Counted from the first letter of the stretch, positions 1,958-13,659 are shown. The stretch: 13,659 nucleotides of DNA from Candidatus Thorarchaeota archaeon (GCA_004524445.1 SDNP01000049.1:1-13659); one strand, 5' to 3'. The notes: generated by a model from the letters alone, not told the origin. Made by a program: numbers and translations.

Positions 1958-2369
1958 TTCTTATTTCCCCTCTTACGAATTGGACATATGTCCATGAACG
2001 GGATTAGCGAATCTCTATAATAAAGCCTGACCAACTCTGTGTTCTTCAGTCTAGCAGCCATCTAACCGAATTCTGAAAGACTTTGTCACGACTAGTTATT
2101 GACTCCGCGATAATGGGAACTCAGTAGGAGAATTCTCTTAACAATCGGACAGCCACGGGCTTCAATCAAAATAGCCGTAGGTAGCTAAATTGATTCATTA
2201 TTATGCTGAAAACTACTTGCTCCCAGTTATTGGTTTATGAAAGTAGAGGCACACTAGAAGATTCCAGAGCGATTCACGAGTCATTGTCTGTAATACTAAA
2301 ATGTGAACGTTACTTTCCGCCAATGTTGCGATAATCTGAATATTAGTGAGAATCATTGGATGCGAATCC

Positions 2370-2441
2370 TGATGGGTTAGCGGTGCAACGTAGGTTGCTC
2401 CGGAAACGGAGTTTCCCTTACACTCATGTTGTTGAGCGCCC
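2370..2441 (+). repeat. Inter-cassette structured repeat, copy R1 (full length)
   Basis: tgatgggttagcggtgcaacgtaggttgctccggaaacggagtttcccttacactcatgttgttgagcgccc; aligns with copies at 6401 and 7306. Confidence 0.92.
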
Positions 2442-2555
2442 TTTCATTTCTCACATTTCAACCCATAAGGCGTGGATACAAGGCTTCTCTCGTGAATCCT
2501 TTCAGGTTACGAACAACACAGTGGGCTGTTAGAGATGCTTCTTATGCATAACAAA

Positions 2556-2583
2556 CTTAATATACTCAGTAATACAGAGTATA
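2556..2583 (+). promoter_or_regulatory. TATA-like box overlapped by a palindromic operator for TA pair 1
   Basis: cttaatata followed by the imperfect palindrome tatactc-agtaataca-gagtata (2561-2583), ending 10 bp before ATG 2594. Confidence 0.65.
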
Positions 2584-2593
2584 CAAGATAACC

Positions 2594-2899
2594 ATGGGCG
2601 ACGTATTGTCTGTGAGAATAGACAAGGACTTAGAAGGACGTCTTACCTTTCTAATGAAAGAGAGAAGAATCGTAGATAGGTCCGCATATATTAGACGGCT
2701 TATCGATCGGTCATTGACTGAGGACTTTCTTGATTACCTGTCTGAAGAAGTAGCTGCAAAACGTATCAGCATGTGGAAAGCGGCATCAATGGCTGGAATC
2801 TCTCTCAGGTCGATGATGAGCGAACTCGCGAAGCGAGGGGTATCGATGTATGATGAACAGTCCTTACGGGAGGACCTTCTTTTTGCAGAGGGAAAATGA
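2594..2899 (+). CDS. UPF0175-like antitoxin with N-terminal ribbon-helix-helix
   Basis: VLSVRID...DRSAYIRRLI is RHH-like; ISMWKAASMAGISLRSMMSELAKRGV is the UPF0175-type HTH; lies directly upstream of a PIN gene. Confidence 0.85.
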   Translation: MGDVLSVRIDKDLEGRLTFLMKERRIVDRSAYIRRLIDRSLTEDFLDYLSEEVAAKRISMWKAASMAGISLRSMMSELAKRGVSMYDEQSLREDLLFAEGK

Positions 2900-3407
2900 G
2901 CCTATTGGGATTGTAAACTCATCCCCTCTCATATACCTAGGAAAGCTGGGTCTGCTTGACTTGCTGAACAAATTCTTTCCTAAGGTGATTACAGTACAAA
3001 CAGTGAAGGAAGAGGTACTCGACGAAGCTTCTCCCGAGTATCCCGCACTCCAAAATGCGTTCTCAGATTGGCTGGCGGTATCAGATGATGTAGAAACATC
3101 ACTCTCAGTGAATCTGAAAGAAATGGGGCTCCACCAGGGGGAGGTTGATGTGATTTCTTTGGCTCTTCGACAAAAGGAAGAGCACAACAACGTGGTAGTG
3201 ATTATTGATGATCTTGCAGCCAGAGAAGTCGTTAGGGCTCTTGGAATGCAACTGACTGGGACGGTAGGCGTCATACTGCGAGCTTCAACACAAGGTATTC
3301 TCTCAAACAAGGAGTCAATCGCTAAAATCAACTTTCTGGTTGAATCGACCTCTTTCAGAATCTCTCCCTCACTGTATTCTAGAGTAATCTCCGAATTAAT
3401 GAAATAG
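2850..3407 (+). CDS. DUF3368-like PIN-domain toxin (start uncertain, possible 5' frameshift)
   Basis: Motifs IVNSSPLIYL, LHQGEVDVISLA, IIDDLAAR and GTVGVILRA are typical of DUF3368 PIN proteins paired with UPF0175. The ATG at 2896 that overlaps the antitoxin stop is out of frame. Confidence 0.85.
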   Translation: MMNSPYGRTFFLQRENEPIGIVNSSPLIYLGKLGLLDLLNKFFPKVITVQTVKEEVLDEASPEYPALQNAFSDWLAVSDDVETSLSVNLKEMGLHQGEVDVISLALRQKEEHNNVVVIIDDLAAREVVRALGMQLTGTVGVILRASTQGILSNKESIAKINFLVESTSFRISPSLYSRVISELMK

Positions 3408-3603
3408 ACGTTGGCAAATGTTATGGGACGAAACACCAGTTCTCGAGCAATGCAATATCGCCCGTTTTCTAGTTAAAATGCCCACCTTCAAAAGAATGGT
3501 ATCACTGGCTGAATTGGATACCAAGAAATAGAATGGAAACCGCCTTATTTGCAGGCCTCTGAGCACCGTTCATTGTAAGTTGGACAATCTTGGACAGAGG
3601 AGC

Positions 3604-3638
3604 GTTGCCCTCCCAGAAACGGCACTGGGTTGAACTCC
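3604..3638 (+). repeat. Degenerate, internally deleted copy of the inter-cassette repeat
   Basis: gttgccctcccagaaacgg...gttgaactcc resembles gttgctcctgaaaacgg...gttga(g/a)c; it lies between TA pair 1 and the DUF6448-like gene, where the ~1 kb spacing predicts a copy. Confidence 0.4.
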
Positions 3639-3821
3639 TTGAGGTCGGGGGATGACCTCAGATGAGAGTTCCGAAGCAGAGTATTTAAACACCACACTGA
3701 AGTCCACTCATTGTGTAAACTGTCATCCCATATATGTCTAGGTTTGTCCAAGTTTGGTGTGGCTGTTGGCACACCCTTTCAATTCTTGTTGACGTATCAA
3801 ACAAAAAGAGAGGGAATATCA

Positions 3822-4397
3822 ATGTTCGCAAAGCAAATACGTCCGCATGTGTATAGCATAGTTACTGGAGGTTTATTCACGCCGCCCCATTGTGATACAT
3901 TGGATGGGCCTGTCGTTGCAGCATGCAAGGAGGCCCTGCAAACAGAGAATGTGAATCTCATATTACCTTGGGTTCCAAAGAGTGCCGAAGATGAACTCAA
4001 AAACGCGTTCACCAAGGTGCTACACGTGAGGAACCTCGATGCGGATGCTGCAGAATTGGCAGACTATTGGTTTTTCGAAACAGCTGTTCGTATGCATCGT
4101 GAAGGAGAAGGCGCACCGTATACAGGATTGAAACCTGCGGGACTAGACTGGGGCCCTGTGGTTCCGAAAGCCGAAGAGGACATTGAAAGAGCGAACCCAG
4201 ATGCAACCATTGAGTTCCTGAAGACAACTATTGAAGAGGAGCTTACAAGACGGTTTGGAAGAGCCATGTCGAAGAAACAATACGATAGTGATGATGTTGA
4301 TGCAGCAAGAGAATATGTACAGTCAATGTTGGAATTTGTCTTATTCTCTCACCATCTTTATGAAAACGTTACTGGACACCATGCTCATGGGGAATAG
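3822..4397 (+). CDS. DUF6448-like putative metal-binding protein (HCDTLDGPVV motif); start may be 3822 (ATG) or 3879 (ACG)
   Basis: PPHCDTLDGPVV, FFETAVRMHREGEGAPYTGLKPAG and DVDAAREYV motifs recalled for this family; His-rich C-terminus HHAHGE. Confidence 0.8.
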   Translation: MFAKQIRPHVYSIVTGGLFTPPHCDTLDGPVVAACKEALQTENVNLILPWVPKSAEDELKNAFTKVLHVRNLDADAAELADYWFFETAVRMHREGEGAPYTGLKPAGLDWGPVVPKAEEDIERANPDATIEFLKTTIEEELTRRFGRAMSKKQYDSDDVDAAREYVQSMLEFVLFSHHLYENVTGHHAHGE

Positions 4398-4481
4398 CTA
4401 TTACACTCTGCTGTACTTGCTTCACCATCAGAACTCTCAGATGCAAAAGCATGAATGGCACGGGAACCAACAGGTTACGAT

Positions 4482-4540
4482 ATGAGTTATGCTGGCACAG
4501 AAGATGGAGTTTTCCCTTTCATGCGCATTGTTGAGCACCC
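4482..4540 (+). repeat. Inter-cassette repeat, copy R2 (first hairpin deleted)
   Basis: atgagttatgctggcacagaagatggagttttccctttcatgcgcattgttgagcaccc; both ends match R5, the GCAAC-N4-GTTGC hairpin is missing. Confidence 0.8.
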
Positions 4541-4648
4541 TATATTTTTCATATTTGGAGAGGATTAGGTACTAAGGTTTGCTGACTGCCTTTATCCCAC
4601 GAGTAACCTTTCTGCTTGGTGTCCACCGCACCACTGACATTGTACAAG

Positions 4649-4679
4649 TTTATATGGTGACGAGGTAACCAAGTAACTG
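4649..4679 (+). promoter_or_regulatory. TATA box plus 8-bp periodic operator repeats for TA pair 2
   Basis: tttatat (4649-4655) followed by ggtgacga ggtaacca agtaactg immediately before the antitoxin start. Confidence 0.6.
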
Positions 4680-4680
4680 G

Positions 4681-4968
4681 GTGTTGCCAGTGTCGACCGT
4701 TAAATTCGATTTGCAAGATGACTTGGAGGAGCTGCAGGCTCGGCTCTACCTTGATACTCGGAAACGACTCAGCAAGAAAGAGATCTTGGAACTGGTATTT
4801 AGAATCGGCAAGGAGAACTACGATCTTATCGTGAGAGAAGTTCAGTCCGGCGACATTCCTCTGAGCGATGAAACGATTCGAGAAATACTCTCTTTGGCCG
4901 AGGATTTAGGACCGGGTAGCGAAGACCTCTCATCAAGCGTAGACGACATTGTATATGGTGGAAGCTGA
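4681..4968 (+). CDS. Putative antitoxin (VapB-type)
   Basis: Small acidic ORF 2 bp upstream of a PIN gene; its C-terminus SEDLSSSVDDIVYG is typical of archaeal VapB tails. Confidence 0.8.
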   Translation: MLPVSTVKFDLQDDLEELQARLYLDTRKRLSKKEILELVFRIGKENYDLIVREVQSGDIPLSDETIREILSLAEDLGPGSEDLSSSVDDIVYGGS

Positions 4969-4970
4969 AG

Positions 4971-5393
4971 ATGACTGTCCTCTTAGACAGTAATGTCATC
5001 ATTGCATTACTCAATTCGCGTGACAAAAATCATTCCGCCGCTAAGAAATTACTAACGAAATTGAAGCGTCCAGAGTATGGCATGCGAATAACAATTGACT
5101 ATATCCTCGACGAGGTATTGACAACTCTGTGGATGCATACCCGCCGGAAAGACGGAGTGGAGAAGGCATACCGACTCATTAGACACACTCCCGAGTTCAT
5201 TCGCTTTAATCATGTCAAATCTGATATTTTCGACTCGGCCTGGGAAAAATGGGAAAAGGTAGCCAGCTGGCCCGAGAAACCCTTGAGCTTCACTGACTCT
5301 TGCATACTTTCTTTCATGGAAAAGCATGATATTGAGTACTTAGCAACTTTTGATTCCGACTTTGATGGACTCGTTTCTCTGGTGTTTGGTTGA
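4971..5393 (+). CDS. vapC: VapC PIN-domain ribonuclease toxin
   Basis: All four acidic positions are present: VLLDSN, ILDEV, LSFTDS, ATFDSDF. Confidence 0.93.
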   Translation: MTVLLDSNVIIALLNSRDKNHSAAKKLLTKLKRPEYGMRITIDYILDEVLTTLWMHTRRKDGVEKAYRLIRHTPEFIRFNHVKSDIFDSAWEKWEKVASWPEKPLSFTDSCILSFMEKHDIEYLATFDSDFDGLVSLVFG

Positions 5394-5455
5394 AGATAAC
5401 TCCTACTTATTCAAGTGTTCGAACGTAATCTACCTTGGCGTTCTCAGTTTTGAAA

Positions 5456-5518
5456 TGATGCAAGCAATCTAGGTTGTTTCTGAAAACGGAGTCTCCCTTT
5501 CATGTGTGCTGTTGAACT
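5456..5518 (+). repeat. Inter-cassette repeat, copy R3 (5' part shortened)
   Basis: tgatgcaagcaatctaggttgtttctgaaaacggagtctccctttcatgtgtgctgttgaact; the 3' ~36 nt are nearly identical to R5. Confidence 0.88.
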
Positions 5519-5531
5519 ATCTATCCATTCC

Positions 5532-6092
5532 TCATAGAGGATGATTCTCTTTAAATTCAATCCAATCTTCGTAGATTCCGAGTTTCTTGCACATCATCTC
5601 AATATACGCGTGATCCAAGTCCTCCTCATTTCGGACTAGAATTCCTCGTGCATCTCGGAGGTCCTGTTCTCCCTGAAAGAGTATTTTGTTGATAATGGTA
5701 TCCTCTGCGGAGCCAATGTACATCTGAACCCCTGCAAACTCCACAGAGATTCTCCTCTCAAGGGTCATTTCGTCAAACTCGGAGCTTATCCCTTGAAGGT
5801 CGAGTCTGAGCAAACCGTCCCCAACAAAGACGGTGCAATGAGTGCCCTCTCTCAGGGCATCAGCCAGGTCTTTTTTCGAAACATCGAAGTTCTCGGAATT
5901 CAGGAACGTGGTGAACTGCTCAATCTCATGGTCGTCCAGTTTGAGAATGAAGACAATATCTACTGTGGTTCGTGGCACGCCATGGTACATCACCGCAATC
6001 CCCCCGACCATGACATAGGTCATGTCATGGTCATTTAGGTAACGGCACACAAGTCGCAGCACTTCAACAAAATCATCCACTATCTCTTGCAC
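5532..6092 (-). CDS. Nucleotidyltransferase, DUF6036/MenT/AbiEii-like putative toxin
   Basis: VGGIAVMYHGVPRTTVDI N-terminal NTase motif and SAEDTIINK...QDLRDA C-terminal motif. Confidence 0.85.
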   Translation of the reverse strand: MQEIVDDFVEVLRLVCRYLNDHDMTYVMVGGIAVMYHGVPRTTVDIVFILKLDDHEIEQFTTFLNSENFDVSKKDLADALREGTHCTVFVGDGLLRLDLQGISSEFDEMTLERRISVEFAGVQMYIGSAEDTIINKILFQGEQDLRDARGILVRNEEDLDHAYIEMMCKKLGIYEDWIEFKENHPL

Positions 6093-6231
6093 CTGCGAGC
6101 TTCAAAGCTAGATTTGTCATCTTAATCCCGAGGGCCAAGGTTTCAAGACCAGTGAAACGTCTGGCTCTCTCAGCTGTGATAATTTGGTCTCTCTCACGAC
6201 GTTCTCTAGCCCTTTCCTTTAGTGACTTCAT
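6073..6231 (-). CDS. Small helical protein (52 aa), putative antitoxin of the nucleotidyltransferase
   Basis: Below the ORF-track cutoff: MKSLKERARERRERDQIITAERARRFTGLETLALGIKMTNLALKLAGARDSG*; overlaps the NTase start by 20 bp in operon arrangement. Confidence 0.65.
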   Translation of the reverse strand: MKSLKERARERRERDQIITAERARRFTGLETLALGIKMTNLALKLAGARDSG

Positions 6232-6400
6232 TCAATATCATCTATCAATCTGAATAACTCCTCATATATTCTCCTTTTTGTTGTGTTCCAAGGCCCTTCC
6301 TACGTATAGGATCAAAAATGAAGTGAAACGTCTTGGCTTTCTAATGATCACATGATATGCTTTGTGCCTTACAGAGACTAATGCGAGAGGTATAGGGCGA

Positions 6401-6472
6401 TGATGGGTTAGCGGTGCAACGTGGGTTGCTCCTGAAATGGCGTCTCCCTTCAAAATCATGCTGTGGAGGGCC
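6401..6472 (+). repeat. Inter-cassette repeat, copy R4 (full length)
   Basis: tgatgggttagcggtgcaacgtgggttgctcctgaaatggcgtctcccttcaaaatcatgctgtggagggcc; the first 32 nt differ from R1 at one position. Confidence 0.92.
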
Positions 6473-6512
6473 TCATTCGATTTTCAACTCACGCCGTATT
6501 TACTTATGCAGT

Positions 6513-6565
6513 TGTTGTATATTCTATGTACAACATAATCGCTGTGTTTATTACAATAAATACAG
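6513..6565 (+). promoter_or_regulatory. Two palindromes (putative operators) and a TATA-like box for TA pair 4
   Basis: tgttgtatat-tct-atgtacaaca (6513-6535) and ctgtgtttatt-ac-aataaatacag (6542-6565), each with one mismatch; the second contains tttatta and ends 12 bp before ATG 6578. Confidence 0.65.
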
Positions 6566-6577
6566 TAAGATAAGAAT

Positions 6578-6820
6578 ATGACGACCATTTCAATCAAGGA
6601 AGAAACACGCCGAGAGCTGTTGCGCATAGCAGGCGAGATTCAGCAGAGGACACAGGAACGAGTTGACTTTGATACGGTCATTCAGACGCTGATTGATGTC
6701 TATGAAACACAACGGCTTGATCTGGATGCTTGGTCAGAGTTCACCAGGCCGGTTGAAGGCGTAGAGTTCAAGACTGCCTATGAGGGGCTCATCCTTGAGA
6801 GGCGTAACGAGAATGAGTGA
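6578..6820 (+). CDS. Putative antitoxin (RHH-like VapB)
   Basis: MTTISIKEETRRELL...VDFDTVIQTLI is an RHH-like pattern; overlaps the downstream PIN start. Confidence 0.82.
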   Translation: MTTISIKEETRRELLRIAGEIQQRTQERVDFDTVIQTLIDVYETQRLDLDAWSEFTRPVEGVEFKTAYEGLILERRNENE

Positions 6821-7235
6821 TATACCCGAGATCTTTGTTCTCGATGGAGGGGTCTTGCTTGCCTTGGCATTGGGAGAGGCATCTGCTCAAGCTCTTGTTG
6901 GAGAGATGCCATCAGAACAAAAACAGTATGCATGCACGGAGCTGGCTCTCAGTGAACTGACCTATATTCTATGCAGACAACTTGATTGGACATCTGCTTG
7001 GGAAAAGACCCAAAGTTTGCTCCGCTCGGCAGTTGTGCGCATCATTCGGACTAGCATGGTCTGGGGAGAGGCCGCCAGCATCAAATGCCAGGTTCCAATC
7101 TCTCTCCCGGACTGTTTTACCATCGCAGCAGCAAGAATATTGAACGGGCGACCAATGTTTGCTCGCCAAGAGGCTGAGATTATATCAGCTATAGAGAAGG
7201 GATTACTGAATGATAGACTCGAATTCCTCGAATGA
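6813..7235 (+). CDS. vapC: VapC PIN-domain toxin
   Basis: Start reassigned to in-frame ATG 6813 (MSDIPEIFVLDGGVLL); motifs LALSELTYILCR and ISLPDCFTIAAA. Confidence 0.87.
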   Translation: MSDIPEIFVLDGGVLLALALGEASAQALVGEMPSEQKQYACTELALSELTYILCRQLDWTSAWEKTQSLLRSAVVRIIRTSMVWGEAASIKCQVPISLPDCFTIAAARILNGRPMFARQEAEIISAIEKGLLNDRLEFLE

Positions 7236-7305
7236 ACTGGTATGATTGCTTAGCATCTCAATATCTGCCATGTCTTGGCAGGAAGCAGAATTCTGTGCAT
7301 ACCTC

Positions 7306-7379
7306 TGATGAGTTAAGCGGGGCAACTCGGGTTGCTCCTGAAAACGGAGTTTCCCTTTCATGTGTGCTGTTGAGCACCC
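7306..7379 (+). repeat. Inter-cassette repeat, copy R5 (full length)
   Basis: tgatgagttaagcggggcaactcgggttgctcctgaaaacggagtttccctttcatgtgtgctgttgagcaccc. Confidence 0.92.
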
Positions 7380-7481
7380 AATCTCCTTTGAGTGCTGATT
7401 CTTGGATCTCCAGAAAATACATATGAAAATGGTTAGAATCAAATATGGAATGAATATTCAAACGTCAGGAAGGGCAGTAGG

Positions 7482-7664
7482 ATGACGCACCGAATAAGAA
7501 TCTCCCAAGAGGCATATGACCTGCTTGAAAGTGAAAGGCGTCCTGATGAATCATTCAGTGATGTTCTTCGCAGACTGATAGAACGGTATGAAAAGCGGGA
7601 GTTTGCAAAAAGAGAAAAGTCTATCTTCAAGAATGAGGAATTCGAGTCTCTCGACAAAGAGTAG
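7482..7664 (+). CDS. vapB: Orphan archaeal VapB-family antitoxin (DUF217-like)
   Basis: IRISQEAYDLL...RPDESFSDVLRRL is the characteristic motif; no co-oriented toxin directly follows. Confidence 0.8.
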   Translation: MTHRIRISQEAYDLLESERRPDESFSDVLRRLIERYEKREFAKREKSIFKNEEFESLDKE

Positions 7665-7687
7665 TCGGCTATGGGGATCGGCCTTAA

Positions 7688-8140
7688 CTAAAGCTCCTTC
7701 GGGAATAGCAGAACATCTTCAATCTCATTTTTGGCAACGAACTTGGAGAATTCAGTATCAATGGTTAGAAATTGTTGCTGGTTTCTAAGAGCTGTTGCAT
7801 AGAGGAGGTTGTCGATCATATCTGAATGTCCCATTTGGAAGAGATCAAGAGCTATCATATAATCATCGGGGCCTGTTGAAACCGCATTATAGTGACCGGT
7901 CTTCGTTATACTCAGAAGCCCTCTTCTGAAGCGGGTCTTTTGATAGGTGTCTTGTTTGATTTGCTTTGTCGCGAACCAGCTACTCTCAAGCAGACTCCAG
8001 TGAGAGTAGAAGAGCTGAACCTCCTCATGATTCAGTCTTGGAATGACCTCCATCACTTCATGTTCGACCTCGACTCCAAGAGTTGGAAGCAGGAACGATG
8101 TATCAAGAAGAATTCTCTGTACTCTCTGATTGTTGTTCAC
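7688..8140 (-). CDS. vapC: VapC PIN-domain toxin
   Basis: ILLDTSFLLP, SLLES, GHSDMIDNLLYATA, FLTIDTEF. Confidence 0.88.
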   Translation of the reverse strand: MNNNQRVQRILLDTSFLLPTLGVEVEHEVMEVIPRLNHEEVQLFYSHWSLLESSWFATKQIKQDTYQKTRFRRGLLSITKTGHYNAVSTGPDDYMIALDLFQMGHSDMIDNLLYATALRNQQQFLTIDTEFSKFVAKNEIEDVLLFPKEL

Positions 8141-8363
8141 GGCTGATTTCCTCTATTTCTTCTAAATTCGTTGATGCAAACTTCTTTCCATGAATGGCAA
8201 GTGAAATAGGATCGGGAATTGGTTCAATGATGATCTTATCTCCTTCCACCGTGATCAATATATCCATCCCCACCTCAACTCCGGATGCTTCAACCACTGC
8301 CTTTGGAAGATAGATTGTATGTTTCTTTCCGATTCTACTCTCAGTTGTCAGAACCATAGTCAT
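8103..8363 (-). CDS. AbrB/MazE/SpoVT-family antitoxin
   Basis: RIGKKHTIYLPKAVVEASGVEVG...VEGDKIIIEP is a swapped-hairpin pattern; lies upstream of and overlaps the PIN gene. Confidence 0.88.
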   Translation of the reverse strand: MTMVLTTESRIGKKHTIYLPKAVVEASGVEVGMDILITVEGDKIIIEPIPDPISLAIHGKKFASTNLEEIEEISREQQSESTENSS

Positions 8364-8383
8364 TCACCTGACTTTCAACCATT

Positions 8384-8418
8384 TTCCTGACAAATTACTT
8401 AATTTCAGGGAATATAAA
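8384..8418 (-). promoter_or_regulatory. TATA box and palindromic operator for the AbrB-PIN pair
   Basis: Minus strand: tttatat (8418-8412), then the imperfect palindrome cctga-aatta-ag-taatt-tg-tcagg (8409-8386). Confidence 0.6.
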
Positions 8419-8462
8419 GTCATAGGCTCCCTATAGGCTACAATTAACAGGAACATGGGCGT

Positions 8463-8531
8463 GTTAATGCGAGAACGAACAATGGTTTCCAAAGCGGAAT
8501 GTCCCCTTAGGGGCACGCTGGTGATCATTCC
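8463..8531 (+). repeat. Degenerate copy of the inter-cassette repeat
   Basis: gttaatgcg...aac..ggtttccaaagcggaatgtcccctt...gcacgctggtgatcattcc aligns co-linearly with R5 (gttaagcg...aac..ggttgctcctgaaaacggagtttcccttt...gtgctgttgagcaccc). Confidence 0.55.
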
Positions 8532-8606
8532 TCTTTTTGGGTCAGTAGTTAGAAATGAATACATCTAACTGTCAGCTCTTCATATATCCGCTCATCCTTT
8601 CCAACC

Positions 8607-8730
8607 AAGATATTTGGTCACTTGGAGCGCCGAGTGAAACCTTGAAGCAATAGATGCCTGGATTGCAGGAATTGCCTGACAACAACAAGCTCCCAAATTG
8701 ACACGAAATATGATGCAAATCAAGCCGATC
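8607..8730 (+). pseudogene. Remnant of a VapC toxin C-terminus
   Basis: Manual translation: KIFGHLERR / frameshift / EAIDAWIAGIA*QQQAPKLTRN, matching the VapC D-x-x-I-A...L-T-R-N motif; in-frame TGA at 8677-8679 and no N-terminus found. Confidence 0.7.
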
Positions 8731-8943
8731 TTCACCTATCCACCTTTCGAAAAAATGTACGGCAAAATAAGCTTCAATTCATGTTTGATTTTGTTGTTAG
8801 AAATTAGAACACGTGTTCTAATAATTTGATATTGGGCGGAAACAAAAGTAGTGATTTTTCTGAGGGAAACTCTTTGAACTGGAAAGCTCTATCAACAGAC
8901 TTTAACCATAATCGAATCAATAACATCTTTGGAGAGATTGCGA

Positions 8944-9723
8944 ATGCATAAAGTATGTCTAACAAACGATGATGGTCCCGCCAGTGTTGGTCTGAAGAAA
9001 CTTGCTGCTGCCTTGGGGGAGAACCATGATCTTCTTGTAGTTGTACCAGACAGCCAACGTAGTGGCTCTGGGAAGGCTCTCACTCTGAGTCGTCCCATAC
9101 GTATTCTTGACCGCTCCGATACAGGCAAGTACAAAGTCATTGTTCATGATGGTCTTCCAGCAGACTCAGTTGCCATCGCACTCTCTGAAAGAGAAGACTT
9201 TGATCTGTTCGTATCTGGTATCAATCCTGGGGCAAATCTTGGTTATCATCGCATGCTCACCAGCGGAACGATAGGAGCTGCCATGGAGGCTGCGCTTCAA
9301 GGATATCCAGCGATTGCCATATCTCAGGATGTTGAGTCAAAATACTGGTTCACACGTGAAGGTACAGAAATCAATCTCGATAGTATCTGTATGCACGCCA
9401 AGAAAGTCATTGAACTGGTCCAACGCAAAGGATTTCCCGAGGGTATAGATGTTCTGAATCTCAATTTTCCCGACGAAGTGACCAACGATACTCCCATTAT
9501 TGTCACCGAGCCCACCATCGCTCCAGTACGGAACCGTATCGAGGAGAGAGAAGACCCCTATGGTGGTGCCTATTACTGGCTTCAGGGCGGCGAGAAGGGA
9601 TTGGGTAGCACGGATGACGTAGTAGCTGTCACCGAGAAGAATAACATCACAGTGTCCCCGATTGTCATAAGAAGCCCTAAGACAAAGGAGTTGGAAACCC
9701 TGAGGTACTTCCTTGAAATCTAG
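8944..9723 (+). CDS. surE: 5'/3'-nucleotidase SurE
   Basis: LTNDDG, SGSGKALT, GLPADSV, SGINPGANLG, SGTIGAAMEA and LNLNFP motifs; ATG 8944 preferred over TTG 8929. Confidence 0.95.
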   Translation: MHKVCLTNDDGPASVGLKKLAAALGENHDLLVVVPDSQRSGSGKALTLSRPIRILDRSDTGKYKVIVHDGLPADSVAIALSEREDFDLFVSGINPGANLGYHRMLTSGTIGAAMEAALQGYPAIAISQDVESKYWFTREGTEINLDSICMHAKKVIELVQRKGFPEGIDVLNLNFPDEVTNDTPIIVTEPTIAPVRNRIEEREDPYGGAYYWLQGGEKGLGSTDDVVAVTEKNNITVSPIVIRSPKTKELETLRYFLEI

Positions 9724-12030: not shown

Positions 12031-12933
12031 CTATTCACTATACTGCTCCAATCCGCGTCCAAGTTTGAGACCTTCACCTACTATCTTCTGAAGATTCTTC
12101 GTGAATCTGTAATAATGCATATCCAGGGCATCTGCTGGTCTTTCAGCCTTCAGCCGTTCCATAATGACACTATAATTTTTCTTACTTATCTCAATCCCGA
12201 TACTCACTCGATTCAACTGATTACATACCACTAATGTCGTACCTGAGCCAGCAAACGGATCGAGCACAACATCATCCGGACGGGTCGAAGATAGAATTAT
12301 GCGTTGAAGCAATGCTACAGGGGATTGCTGCTTATGAACGCGTTCGCCATCTTCCTCGCGTAGCGCCTCATCCCCGGCAAAATAACCCGAAGTCATCTCT
12401 CTGATATCATCCCAGACATCAGTCACAAATATCCCATTCTTCCTTGGTATCTTTTGATTAGGCTGTAATGGATAGTCAATTCGTAGGCGATTGAATATTC
12501 TTGGCTTCCTACCCTTGGTGGCAAATGCAATAATCTGGTAGTGCTTACCATACCTGTATCTTTGCGGAACTGCTGACGTTGTCTTTTTCCAAATAATCAG
12601 ATTCTGTAGAATCCATCCGGTCCTTTCTAGTGTCCTTAGAACTTCTTTTGCTCGTTTTTCGCGTTGCATGAAATAGATACAACCGCCATCCATCGTCAAC
12701 CGGTACACGGATGAACAGACTTTTTCCAGCCACTCCCAGTATTCGTCCTCATCCATTGAATCATCAAATCGCTCATACTCTTTATCTTGATTGAAGGGAG
12801 GGTCCAAAAAAGTCAGAGCTATTTGTGCATCCTTCACAGCTTGAATCTCAGCCTGATTCATTATCTTGGCATTGTCACCATGGAGTACTGTGGCATTCCG
12901 GTATTGGAACGGATTCTGAGTACTCATGGTCAA
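12031..12933 (-). CDS. Site-specific DNA methyltransferase (N6-A/N4-C, beta class)
   Basis: Catalytic motif IV FLDPPF precedes HKQQSP and SAM-binding motif I VLDPFAGSGTT...GIEI; the true start may be ATG 12927. Confidence 0.92.
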   Translation of the reverse strand: MTMSTQNPFQYRNATVLHGDNAKIMNQAEIQAVKDAQIALTFLDPPFNQDKEYERFDDSMDEDEYWEWLEKVCSSVYRLTMDGGCIYFMQREKRAKEVLRTLERTGWILQNLIIWKKTTSAVPQRYRYGKHYQIIAFATKGRKPRIFNRLRIDYPLQPNQKIPRKNGIFVTDVWDDIREMTSGYFAGDEALREEDGERVHKQQSPVALLQRIILSSTRPDDVVLDPFAGSGTTLVVCNQLNRVSIGIEISKKNYSVIMERLKAERPADALDMHYYRFTKNLQKIVGEGLKLGRGLEQYSE

Positions 12934-13159: not shown

Positions 13160-13390
13160 ATGCCCGCCGAGCACATACCTCTACCTGAGGAGGATGCACC
13201 ATGTTTGTATGAAGAAGGAAGTGTATTCAATGTGCTCAATCTTTCCCTGGTCACGTTCTTGGTGCTCCTAGGATTGAGTATGGTTGCTCCTATTCTCCCC
13301 ACATATGCAGAGAGTTTCCAGGTGTCCTATACACTGGTGGGCATGGTGGTCTCATCTTTTGCAGTCACACGTATGGCTCTGGAAACATAG
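13160..13390 (+). pseudogene. Truncated MFS transporter (first two TM helices only)
   Basis: LVLLGLSMVAPILPTYAESF.VS...VGMVVSSFAVTRM is a DHA1-type MFS TM1-TM2 pattern; it stops at codon 77 and the downstream sequence does not look like an MFS continuation. Confidence 0.75.
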
Positions 13391-13659
13391 AATATCATTC
13401 TCTTTCTAGTTAAAGTGTCCAATAAAAGTGTCAGAGTTCTGTCAGATTTCCCCCTTGCCTAGGTCAGGATGAATATTCTAGGAGCTTAAATGGGTTCAGT
13501 CACACTCAGTAGTGGACTAGGTGAGTGGGCCAGCGCTATCGCGCGGAGCTCGCCGCCGAAAGCCCGAGGGAAGACGTCCTCTTCTCGACGGAGGTCCTCA
13601 CTCTCCACACAAGGGAGCCCATCAGCTCCTGGAGAGTCCGCGGCTGTTCACCGTGCTCA
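13375..13659 (-). mobile_element. Possible end of an inserted element, with the 3' end of a minus-strand ORF (stop at 13536-13538)
   Basis: Abrupt loss of the MFS frame, short direct repeats (aaagtgtc x2, tgtcaga x2), a hairpin at 13503-13527 and visibly higher GC after ~13520; no transposase motif is visible. Confidence 0.3.

Follow-up and report, generated by a model that had tools for sequence, protein, structure and literature searches.

The 13,659-nt stretch of Candidatus Thorarchaeota archaeon DNA analysed here (GCA_004524445.1, SDNP01000049.1:1-13659; hereafter the window) is an entire contig, C4, of the metagenome-assembled genome (MAG) G000 (2.79 Mb in 64 contigs, 90% complete, 5% contamination). 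Between positions 2,370 and 8,730 it carries a series of small gene units, among them several toxin-antitoxin pairs, which are separated by a short repeat (Table 1). An earlier description made from the window alone, here called the sequence-only reading, had regarded the repeat as an anonymous spacer and the array as a candidate integron-like gene-capture system. Comparison with a congeneric MAG (G001) and with further genomes of the Thorarchaeaceae (the other G numbers) reveals that the repeat is no anonymous spacer but an extra copy of the 16S rRNA 3' trailer, whose partner strand in the pre-rRNA processing stem is the 16S leader. Co-oriented arrays of such copies begin behind the 16S gene and separate small accessory modules whose cargo is unrelated.

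The repeat was traced by repeat finding, by an nhmmer profile derived from the five proposed copies and by an unfiltered covariance model, R1. All five proposed copies were recovered in the same orientation, at 2368, 4478, 5452, 6398 and 7303 (nhmmer E 1e-22 to 9e-14; R1 63-98 bits). The sole further copy in G000 lies on contig C9, where it is cut by the contig end (nhmmer E 7e-6, 2.79 Mb searched), and the match ranked after it has an E-value of 0.69, so the five window copies are far beyond what chance would produce. Copy 1 is full-length for its genus and aligns with the 16S-adjacent trailers of both G001 and G000, copy 2 has a 5' part unlike the rest of the family, and copy 3 has a degenerate 3' core and abuts the stop codon of the minus-strand nucleotidyltransferase (NTase) gene. 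Two degenerate copies had also been proposed: the one near 8463 is weakly recognised by the covariance model, whereas the one near 3604 gave no R1 match at E<=10. The segment around 3441-3600, between the DUF3368 and DUF6448 genes, resembles a different multi-copy element, found at 13378-13659, which matches at least 10 places in G001 with 73-89% identity and has very deep coverage in two metagenomes. A contig from an independent study covers 5561-7581 with 8 differences, indicating that the array is real and not an assembly artefact, and that it is fairly stable. When a strict pattern of the repeat was searched against 185,579 species genomes, the congeneric MAG was the single match.

Table 1. 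Trailer copies and genes of the array, in window coordinates
Feature	Position	Strand	Evidence
16S-trailer copy 1	2355-2461	+	R1 97.9 bits, E 1e-28; nhmmer E 7e-22
UPF0175 antitoxin-like gene	2594-2899	+	PF03683 E 2e-8
DUF3368/PIN-like gene	2850-3407	+	PF11848 E 5e-8
DUF6448 gene	3711-4397, probable start near 3823	+	PF20046 E 2e-53
16S-trailer copy 2	4451-4560	+	R1 63.2 bits; nhmmer E 9e-14, model positions 16-84
vapB1C1 cassette: 95-aa partner and PIN toxin	4681-5393	+	PF01850 E 3e-13
16S-trailer copy 3	5434-5541	+	R1 72.8 bits
Inverted NTase cassette	5532-6231	-	DUF6036 nucleotidyltransferase 5532-6092, PF19502 E 1e-7
52-aa partner of the DUF6036 nucleotidyltransferase	6073-6231	-	
16S-trailer copy 4	6385-6493	+	R1 76.5 bits
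vapB2C2 cassette: 80-aa partner and PIN toxin	6578-7235	+	PF01850 E 7e-6
16S-trailer copy 5	7290-7399	+	R1 93.5 bits
Orphan VapB (vapB3, VapB family)	7482-7664	+	PF02697
PIN of the distal block	7688-8140	-	PF01850
MazE/AbrB of the distal block	8103-8363	-	PF04014
Degenerate trailer copy 6	8446-8548	+	R1 15.6 bits, E 0.009; G001 orthologous site E 0.005-0.03
Possible VapC C-terminal remnant	8650-8712	+	tblastn 21 aa, E 2e-4 in a small database

Pfam searches confirmed the annotation that had been given to the gene units between the repeats, and the cargo genes are mutually non-paralogous at the DNA level; as the sequence-only reading had noted, the repeat is all that the units have in common. 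The PIN toxins of the two VapBC-type cassettes lie at 4971-5393 and 6780-7235, and the 95-aa partner upstream of the first has no Pfam match. The VapC remnant proposed at the distal end fared less clearly, as a 21-aa stretch matches the 130-aa VapB partners of G001 and G012 with 57-60% identity while a Pfam match is lacking. The cassettes carry TATA-like boxes of their own, and since these are nearer to the start codons than the T-rich tail of the repeat, the idea that the tail acts as a promoter was dropped. Searches of the window for Rfam families at E<=1 (in a release without an attC family) and for tRNA genes returned no match. A C/D-box small RNA (TGATGA...CTGA) was also considered for the repeat and dropped, the spacing being wrong and the boxes unconserved.

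The identity of the repeat follows from the 16S locus, where an archaeal small-subunit rRNA is recognised. In G000 the copy on contig C9 begins about 27 nt past the 3' end of the 16S gene (...CACCTCCT), and G001 has a full copy with the same placement. A copy directly after the 16S gene is found in 8 genomes of 6 genera (G000, G001, G003, G026, G075, G078, G105 and G024). When leader and trailer of the G001 16S gene are folded together, leader positions -157..-93 pair with trailer positions +34..+115 through 49 intermolecular base pairs. Of these pairs, the CTGTTGAGCA core contributes a 14-bp helix and the 5' block one of 11+5+6+3 bp. The leader contains a diverged inverted copy of the element, and in G000 as well as G001 its reverse complement can be aligned with the repeat. 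Pairing and alignment together show that the repeat consists of the 3' arm of the processing stem of the pre-16S rRNA and a T-rich tail behind it, the latter probably a terminator. The GTT-type core motif is one strand of the 14-bp processing helix and at most a candidate recombinase core. Array copies extend into the 16S gene, of which they include the last 60-74 nt, in G066, G008, G015, G071, G026 and G002, while those of the window genus are 5'-truncated and retain mainly trailer positions +60 to +125.

As a separate observation, the 16S gene on contig C9 of G000 (L017:9880-9920; also L020:3215-3260) contains a hairpin insertion of about 30 nt near its 3' end, between ...GCGGATGGA and TCACCTCCT. 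The insertion is present in the 16S-tail copies of other genera and absent from the G003 16S gene, and it looks like a mini-intron.

DNA search detected the repeat in 4 of 61 relatives, and the R1 covariance model found copies in 30 of 86 genomes of the family, belonging to 9 of its 16 genera, mostly as one-strand clusters and often at contig ends. Over 15 loci, the median interval between successive repeats is 920 bp (n=49), and 79 of the 122 open reading frames are co-oriented with the repeats. The array runs on directly from the 16S-adjacent copy in G003, G026 and G075. In G000 the 16S contig C9 ends within the first copy and the window contig starts inside another gene; a continuation of the 16S-adjacent copy seen in runs X4 and X6 was sought in the G000 assembly and is not present there. 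The six to seven copies of G000 amount to one array plus the 16S flank, in keeping with the earlier expectation that the repeat is not scattered over the genome. The 73 cassette proteins match 58 Pfam families, and array cargo includes PIN, VapB, ParE and Fic proteins, GNAT acetyltransferases, arsenic-resistance genes, hydrolases, methyltransferases and an MvaI/BcnI endonuclease with its methylase.

Some repeat-bounded units are much larger. On contig C29 of G001 (L018), trailer copies bound a divergent HerA-NurA-Mre11-Rad50-like operon (7149-15310) and an McrBC pair (15660-17967), which look like accessory defence and repair modules carried as large cassettes; the repeat-bounded genes of this contig have no orthologue in G000. 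In G003, a TnpB/Cas12f-like gene (PF07282) lies within the first large cassette behind the 16S gene (contig C9, L064:9192-10934).

Comparison with relatives supports the proposal that the repeat bounds self-contained, exchangeable units, and likewise the expectation that cassette content and order would vary with breakpoints inside the repeat. In G001, contig C31 corresponds to the window array. The two genomes differ by one translocated cassette (vapB2C2) and by several cassette-sized gains or losses, and each holds private cassettes. The 3' half of vapC2 is 84% identical to the start of C31, which is another position in the G001 array, and the vapB1C1 cassette has 84% DNA identity to L019:7132-8035 of G001, where its neighbours differ. 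The cassette of UPF0175 and DUF3368 genes (2594-3407) is absent from G001 at the DNA level, and of the DUF6448 gene only a 146-nt fragment remains there, directly after a repeat and with 83% DNA identity. The distal block (7482-8363), in turn, is 95% identical to that of C31 over 1317 nt, as compared with 86% for a core gene within the genus. Upstream of vapB3 this 95% homology starts at the CTGTTGAGC core of copy 5, and leftward of it only a family-level likeness of about 75% is seen.

Rearrangement is also seen between the congeneric genomes G026 and G012, whose five common blocks run ABCDE and ECADB. A junction of G026 matches one G012 junction to the left and a different one to the right, and three-way alignments locate the switch points within the repeat; where they can be resolved, they fall in its 3' third or at its end. 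The NTase cassette also occurs in genus g12 (G026 and G012), with repeats on both sides. Its DNA identity between genera (5532-6231 against L021:6312-7005 and L022:6637-7333) is 80-82%, compared with 70% for a core gene, the M1 peptidase gene adjoining the 16S gene, which suggests, from sequence divergence, that the cassette was transferred recently between genera.

The remainder of the window does not offer a fixed point. The surE gene of the window (8929-9723), which the sequence-only reading had used as a landmark for comparing cassette order, is not a conserved chromosomal anchor but a divergent second copy within a variable region. Its identity is 49% to the surE of G000 contig C62 and 50% to the single surE of G001. 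G001 also lacks the left 2.4 kb of the window, and with the divergent surE this places the whole window contig in variable DNA. On the minus strand, 12031-12933 encodes an N6/N4 DNA methylase, for which the window shows no obvious endonuclease partner.

These observations are best accounted for, and we hold this with good confidence, by arrays of trailer copies whose first member stands at the 16S gene and whose cassettes are exchanged by recombination between copies. In such a scheme, a module lying between two trailer copies would loop out as a circle bearing one copy, and the circle could re-enter at any other trailer copy, whether in the same cell or in a relative. Loop-out and re-entry would leave direct repeats in one orientation and would shuffle, add or remove cassettes, while rRNA processing would keep the 16S-adjacent copy conserved and so maintain a landing pad common to the family. 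For the enzyme, general homologous recombination is the most economical candidate, although our confidence in it is about evenly balanced. It requires no extra gene, and it fits repeats which are long, variable in length and alike within a genome.

Several points weigh against this account. With a likeness of only about 70-90% over 70-110 nt, the copies of one genome are a poor substrate for homologous recombination. Truncated copies still retain the 3' core, and the repeat has a fixed right-hand limit; both observations may indicate a recognising protein. Switch points are only coarsely resolved, at 3-4 junctions, and neither an excision circle nor an empty-site junction was seen among the reads and contigs aligned to the window. 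The assembly leaves the window contig separate from the 16S contig, so that the anchoring of its array at the 16S gene is drawn from relatives. Furthermore, all the genomes are MAGs, and a recombinase gene may lie in the 2-10% that is missing, be carried by an unbinned element or represent a novel family.

Among the aligned data, the repeat-to-repeat joints 2417>5507 and 6437>4513/4529 were examined as excision products and rejected, as their short sides measure 34-38 nt and their depth is low. The loose ends read as 16S trailer, and the joints are best read as 16S-adjacent copies of relatives which would cross-match two window copies. Window stretches left uncovered in runs X3, X4 and X6 were given no weight.

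Retaining the same architecture, exchange could depend on a dedicated trans-acting enzyme, a site-specific recombinase or nuclease which recognises the CTGTTGAGCACCC core or the stem structure and is integron-like in mechanism. This is possible but clearly the less favoured version. It draws on the 3' core being the best-conserved block across genera and surviving in 5'-truncated copies, on a right repeat boundary that is fixed while the left one varies, on the strict co-orientation of the arrays, and on the best-resolved junction, at which 95% homology begins within a few nucleotides of the core. Conservation of the core at the master copy is, however, already explained by its part in the 14-bp processing helix; in genus g1 the core diverges from the master by 21%, a level similar to the 24-27% of the stem-loop and middle parts, and one junction switches only past the T-tail. 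Nor does a conserved gene flank the arrays, the gene upstream of the 16S gene encoding an M1 peptidase and those on the left of the window secreted proteins.

Pfam analysis of the window proteins upheld the earlier statement that no recombinase lies in the window or nearby, and no credible match to PF00589, PF16795, PF00239, PF01548, PF01797 or PF00078 was found in G000 or G001, so tyrosine, SSV-type, serine, IS110 and HUH recombinases as well as reverse transcriptases are absent from both. The same families gave single matches at most in the other array genomes tested, and PF00589 has no match in G000, G001, G012 or G026. Tyrosine recombinases occur in 29 of the 86 genomes, and their overlap with the 30 array genomes is 11, where 10.1 would be expected by chance; the two show no association, and in no genome of the 86 do a tyrosine recombinase and an array match share a contig. 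No recombinase is among the 25 listed of the 58 families matched by the cassette proteins. IMG/VR was scanned with the core pattern for a viral or element attP, and the four matches obtained do not extend beyond the core and may be read as chance. Other candidates were rejected: the left-flank genes at 800-1957 and 2-772 have signal or transmembrane N-termini and no Pfam match, the M1 peptidase upstream of the 16S gene is no recombinase, and LAGLIDADG endonucleases are present solely in long intein-like frames away from the arrays.

A side result of the same survey is that 57 of the 86 genomes, including four that are 90-99% complete, lack any PF00589 tyrosine recombinase, so that an Xer-type dimer resolvase is apparently not a core gene of the family.

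In its broadest form, which we put forward as a speculation and rate slightly below the dedicated enzyme itself, the Thorarchaeaceae would possess an integrase-free third cassette platform in which the trailer of the 16S processing stem is the recombination site for an unrecognised machinery, perhaps tied to the stem structure or to factors of rRNA processing or termination. If that were true, the trailer site, held constant through ribosome biogenesis, would be a universal and self-renewing docking site for gene exchange across the family.

Alternatively, the copies could be kept mainly for a function at the RNA level, for example to terminate or process cassette transcripts or to pair with the 16S leader, with array variation reduced to ordinary indels. 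Each copy does end in a T-tract, about 81% of a local three-hairpin layout can pair across 16 copies, and in a relative an RNA-library contig extends from the 16S trailer through the repeat. We nevertheless consider this improbable as the main explanation. Covariation is slight and the consensus fold very weak, stems decay without compensating changes, no Rfam family matches, and the step between ABCDE and ECADB in congeneric species is impossible by indels alone. A role of this kind may be an added function, but it leaves unexplained why unrelated cargo is flanked by trailer copies.

It is very improbable that the repeat is a selfish short element, comparable to miniature inverted-repeat transposable elements or repetitive extragenic palindromes, or a self-spreading terminator module whose position among toxin-antitoxin genes is incidental and with which the cassettes do not move. 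Short and non-coding, the element is indeed in part palindromic and bears a T-rich tail, and its copy number differs between genomes. The confinement of the G000 copies to one array and the 16S flank speaks against it, as do the strict co-orientation within arrays, the absence of terminal inverted repeats with target duplications, and the presence of part of the 16S gene in copies of other genera; moreover, cassettes shared between genomes and genera move along with portions of the repeats that flank them.

Least credible of all is a true integron array without its integrase (a cluster of attC sites lacking an integron integrase, CALIN) with the repeats as divergent attC sites: its layout, cassette size and cargo (toxin-antitoxin, restriction-modification and GNAT genes) are those of integrons, GTTGAGC fits GTTRRRY and GTGCAAC nearly fits RYYYAAC in the window genus, and integrons and CALINs are reported to be enriched in Asgard archaea (PMC9668308), but the repeats do not form one long core-pairing hairpin (minimum free energy -4.4 to -13.7 kcal/mol, z +0.3 to -2.4; RNAalifold consensus -1.7 kcal/mol), attC-like pairing of their ends is no better than local hairpins, a published Asgard attC used as control (PMC9668308, Data S9) folds as one hairpin at -19.1 kcal/mol (z -4.7), published archaeal attC sites are canonical and unlike the repeat, the inverse core is unconserved in other genera, the best array genomes have no IntI or PF00589 protein and the 86 genomes show no association, and the repeat is homologous to the 16S trailer. 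The statement that the repeat is not a canonical attC was accordingly correct, its weak folds splitting into local hairpins. Of the integron-like system proposed at the outset, the co-oriented short cassettes and unrelated cargo stand, and the likeness to integrons is one of analogy only, with neither IntI nor an attC hairpin.

The arrays represent an integrase-free way to build and reshuffle sets of accessory genes, the majority of them defence and addiction modules, in the archaea most closely related to eukaryotes. On the practical side, trailer copies explain where the 16S contigs of these MAGs break, and integron-finding software will miss such arrays. If a dedicated enzyme does exist, it would constitute a new recombination system with a conserved natural target. 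No publication describing cassette arrays built on the 16S trailer was found, and the known systems that come nearest each resemble them in part.

Integrons and CALINs, including those of archaea (Ghaly et al. 2022, PMC9668308), have in common with the trailer arrays co-oriented cassettes of about 0.6-1 kb, each followed by a repeat, a cargo rich in toxin-antitoxin, restriction-modification and acetyltransferase genes, and some inverted cassettes with their own promoters. They differ in that the repeat here is a 16S trailer and not an attC, forms no single long hairpin and is accompanied by no IntI, and in that the anchor is an rRNA gene, where integrons have attI beside intI. By analogy, tandem accretion at the 3' end of a stable-RNA gene would be a closer known logic than the integron. 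At the 3' ends of tRNA and tmRNA genes, integrative elements and cargo-only satellites stack behind the gene. There, as in the trailer arrays, direct repeats copy the 3' end or flank of the stable-RNA gene and many of the stacked units have no recombinase of their own; the tRNA islands of Prochlorococcus, built by tycheposons, are an example (bioRxiv 10.1101/2020.12.28.424599). In the Thorarchaeaceae, in contrast, the target is the 16S trailer with its processing stem and not a tRNA, the units are far smaller, often one toxin-antitoxin pair, no integrase was found in the genomes, and cassette order is shuffled beyond mere addition.

Short defined sites are used by the pdif modules of Acinetobacter plasmids, through XerC/D, and by the composite staphylococcal cassette chromosome (SCC) islands at rlmH of staphylococci, through Ccr. 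Both resemble the trailer arrays in their small modules, often of toxin-antitoxin or resistance genes, and in repeated host-related sites at which modules are moved in trans, but the best array genomes have no Xer-type recombinase. Within the Asgard archaea, the element HeimM2 of Heimdallarchaeum is inserted between the single 16S rRNA gene and a tRNA-Arg gene (Wu et al. 2022, PMC8813620). It is likewise an Asgard mobile element directly behind the sole 16S rRNA gene, but it consists of one element of 8 kb that encodes a homing-endonuclease homologue and lacks an array of trailer copies. Set beside these systems, the use of an essential rRNA gene's tail as a common docking sequence widens the range of gene-capture architectures beyond integrons and tRNA-linked islands.

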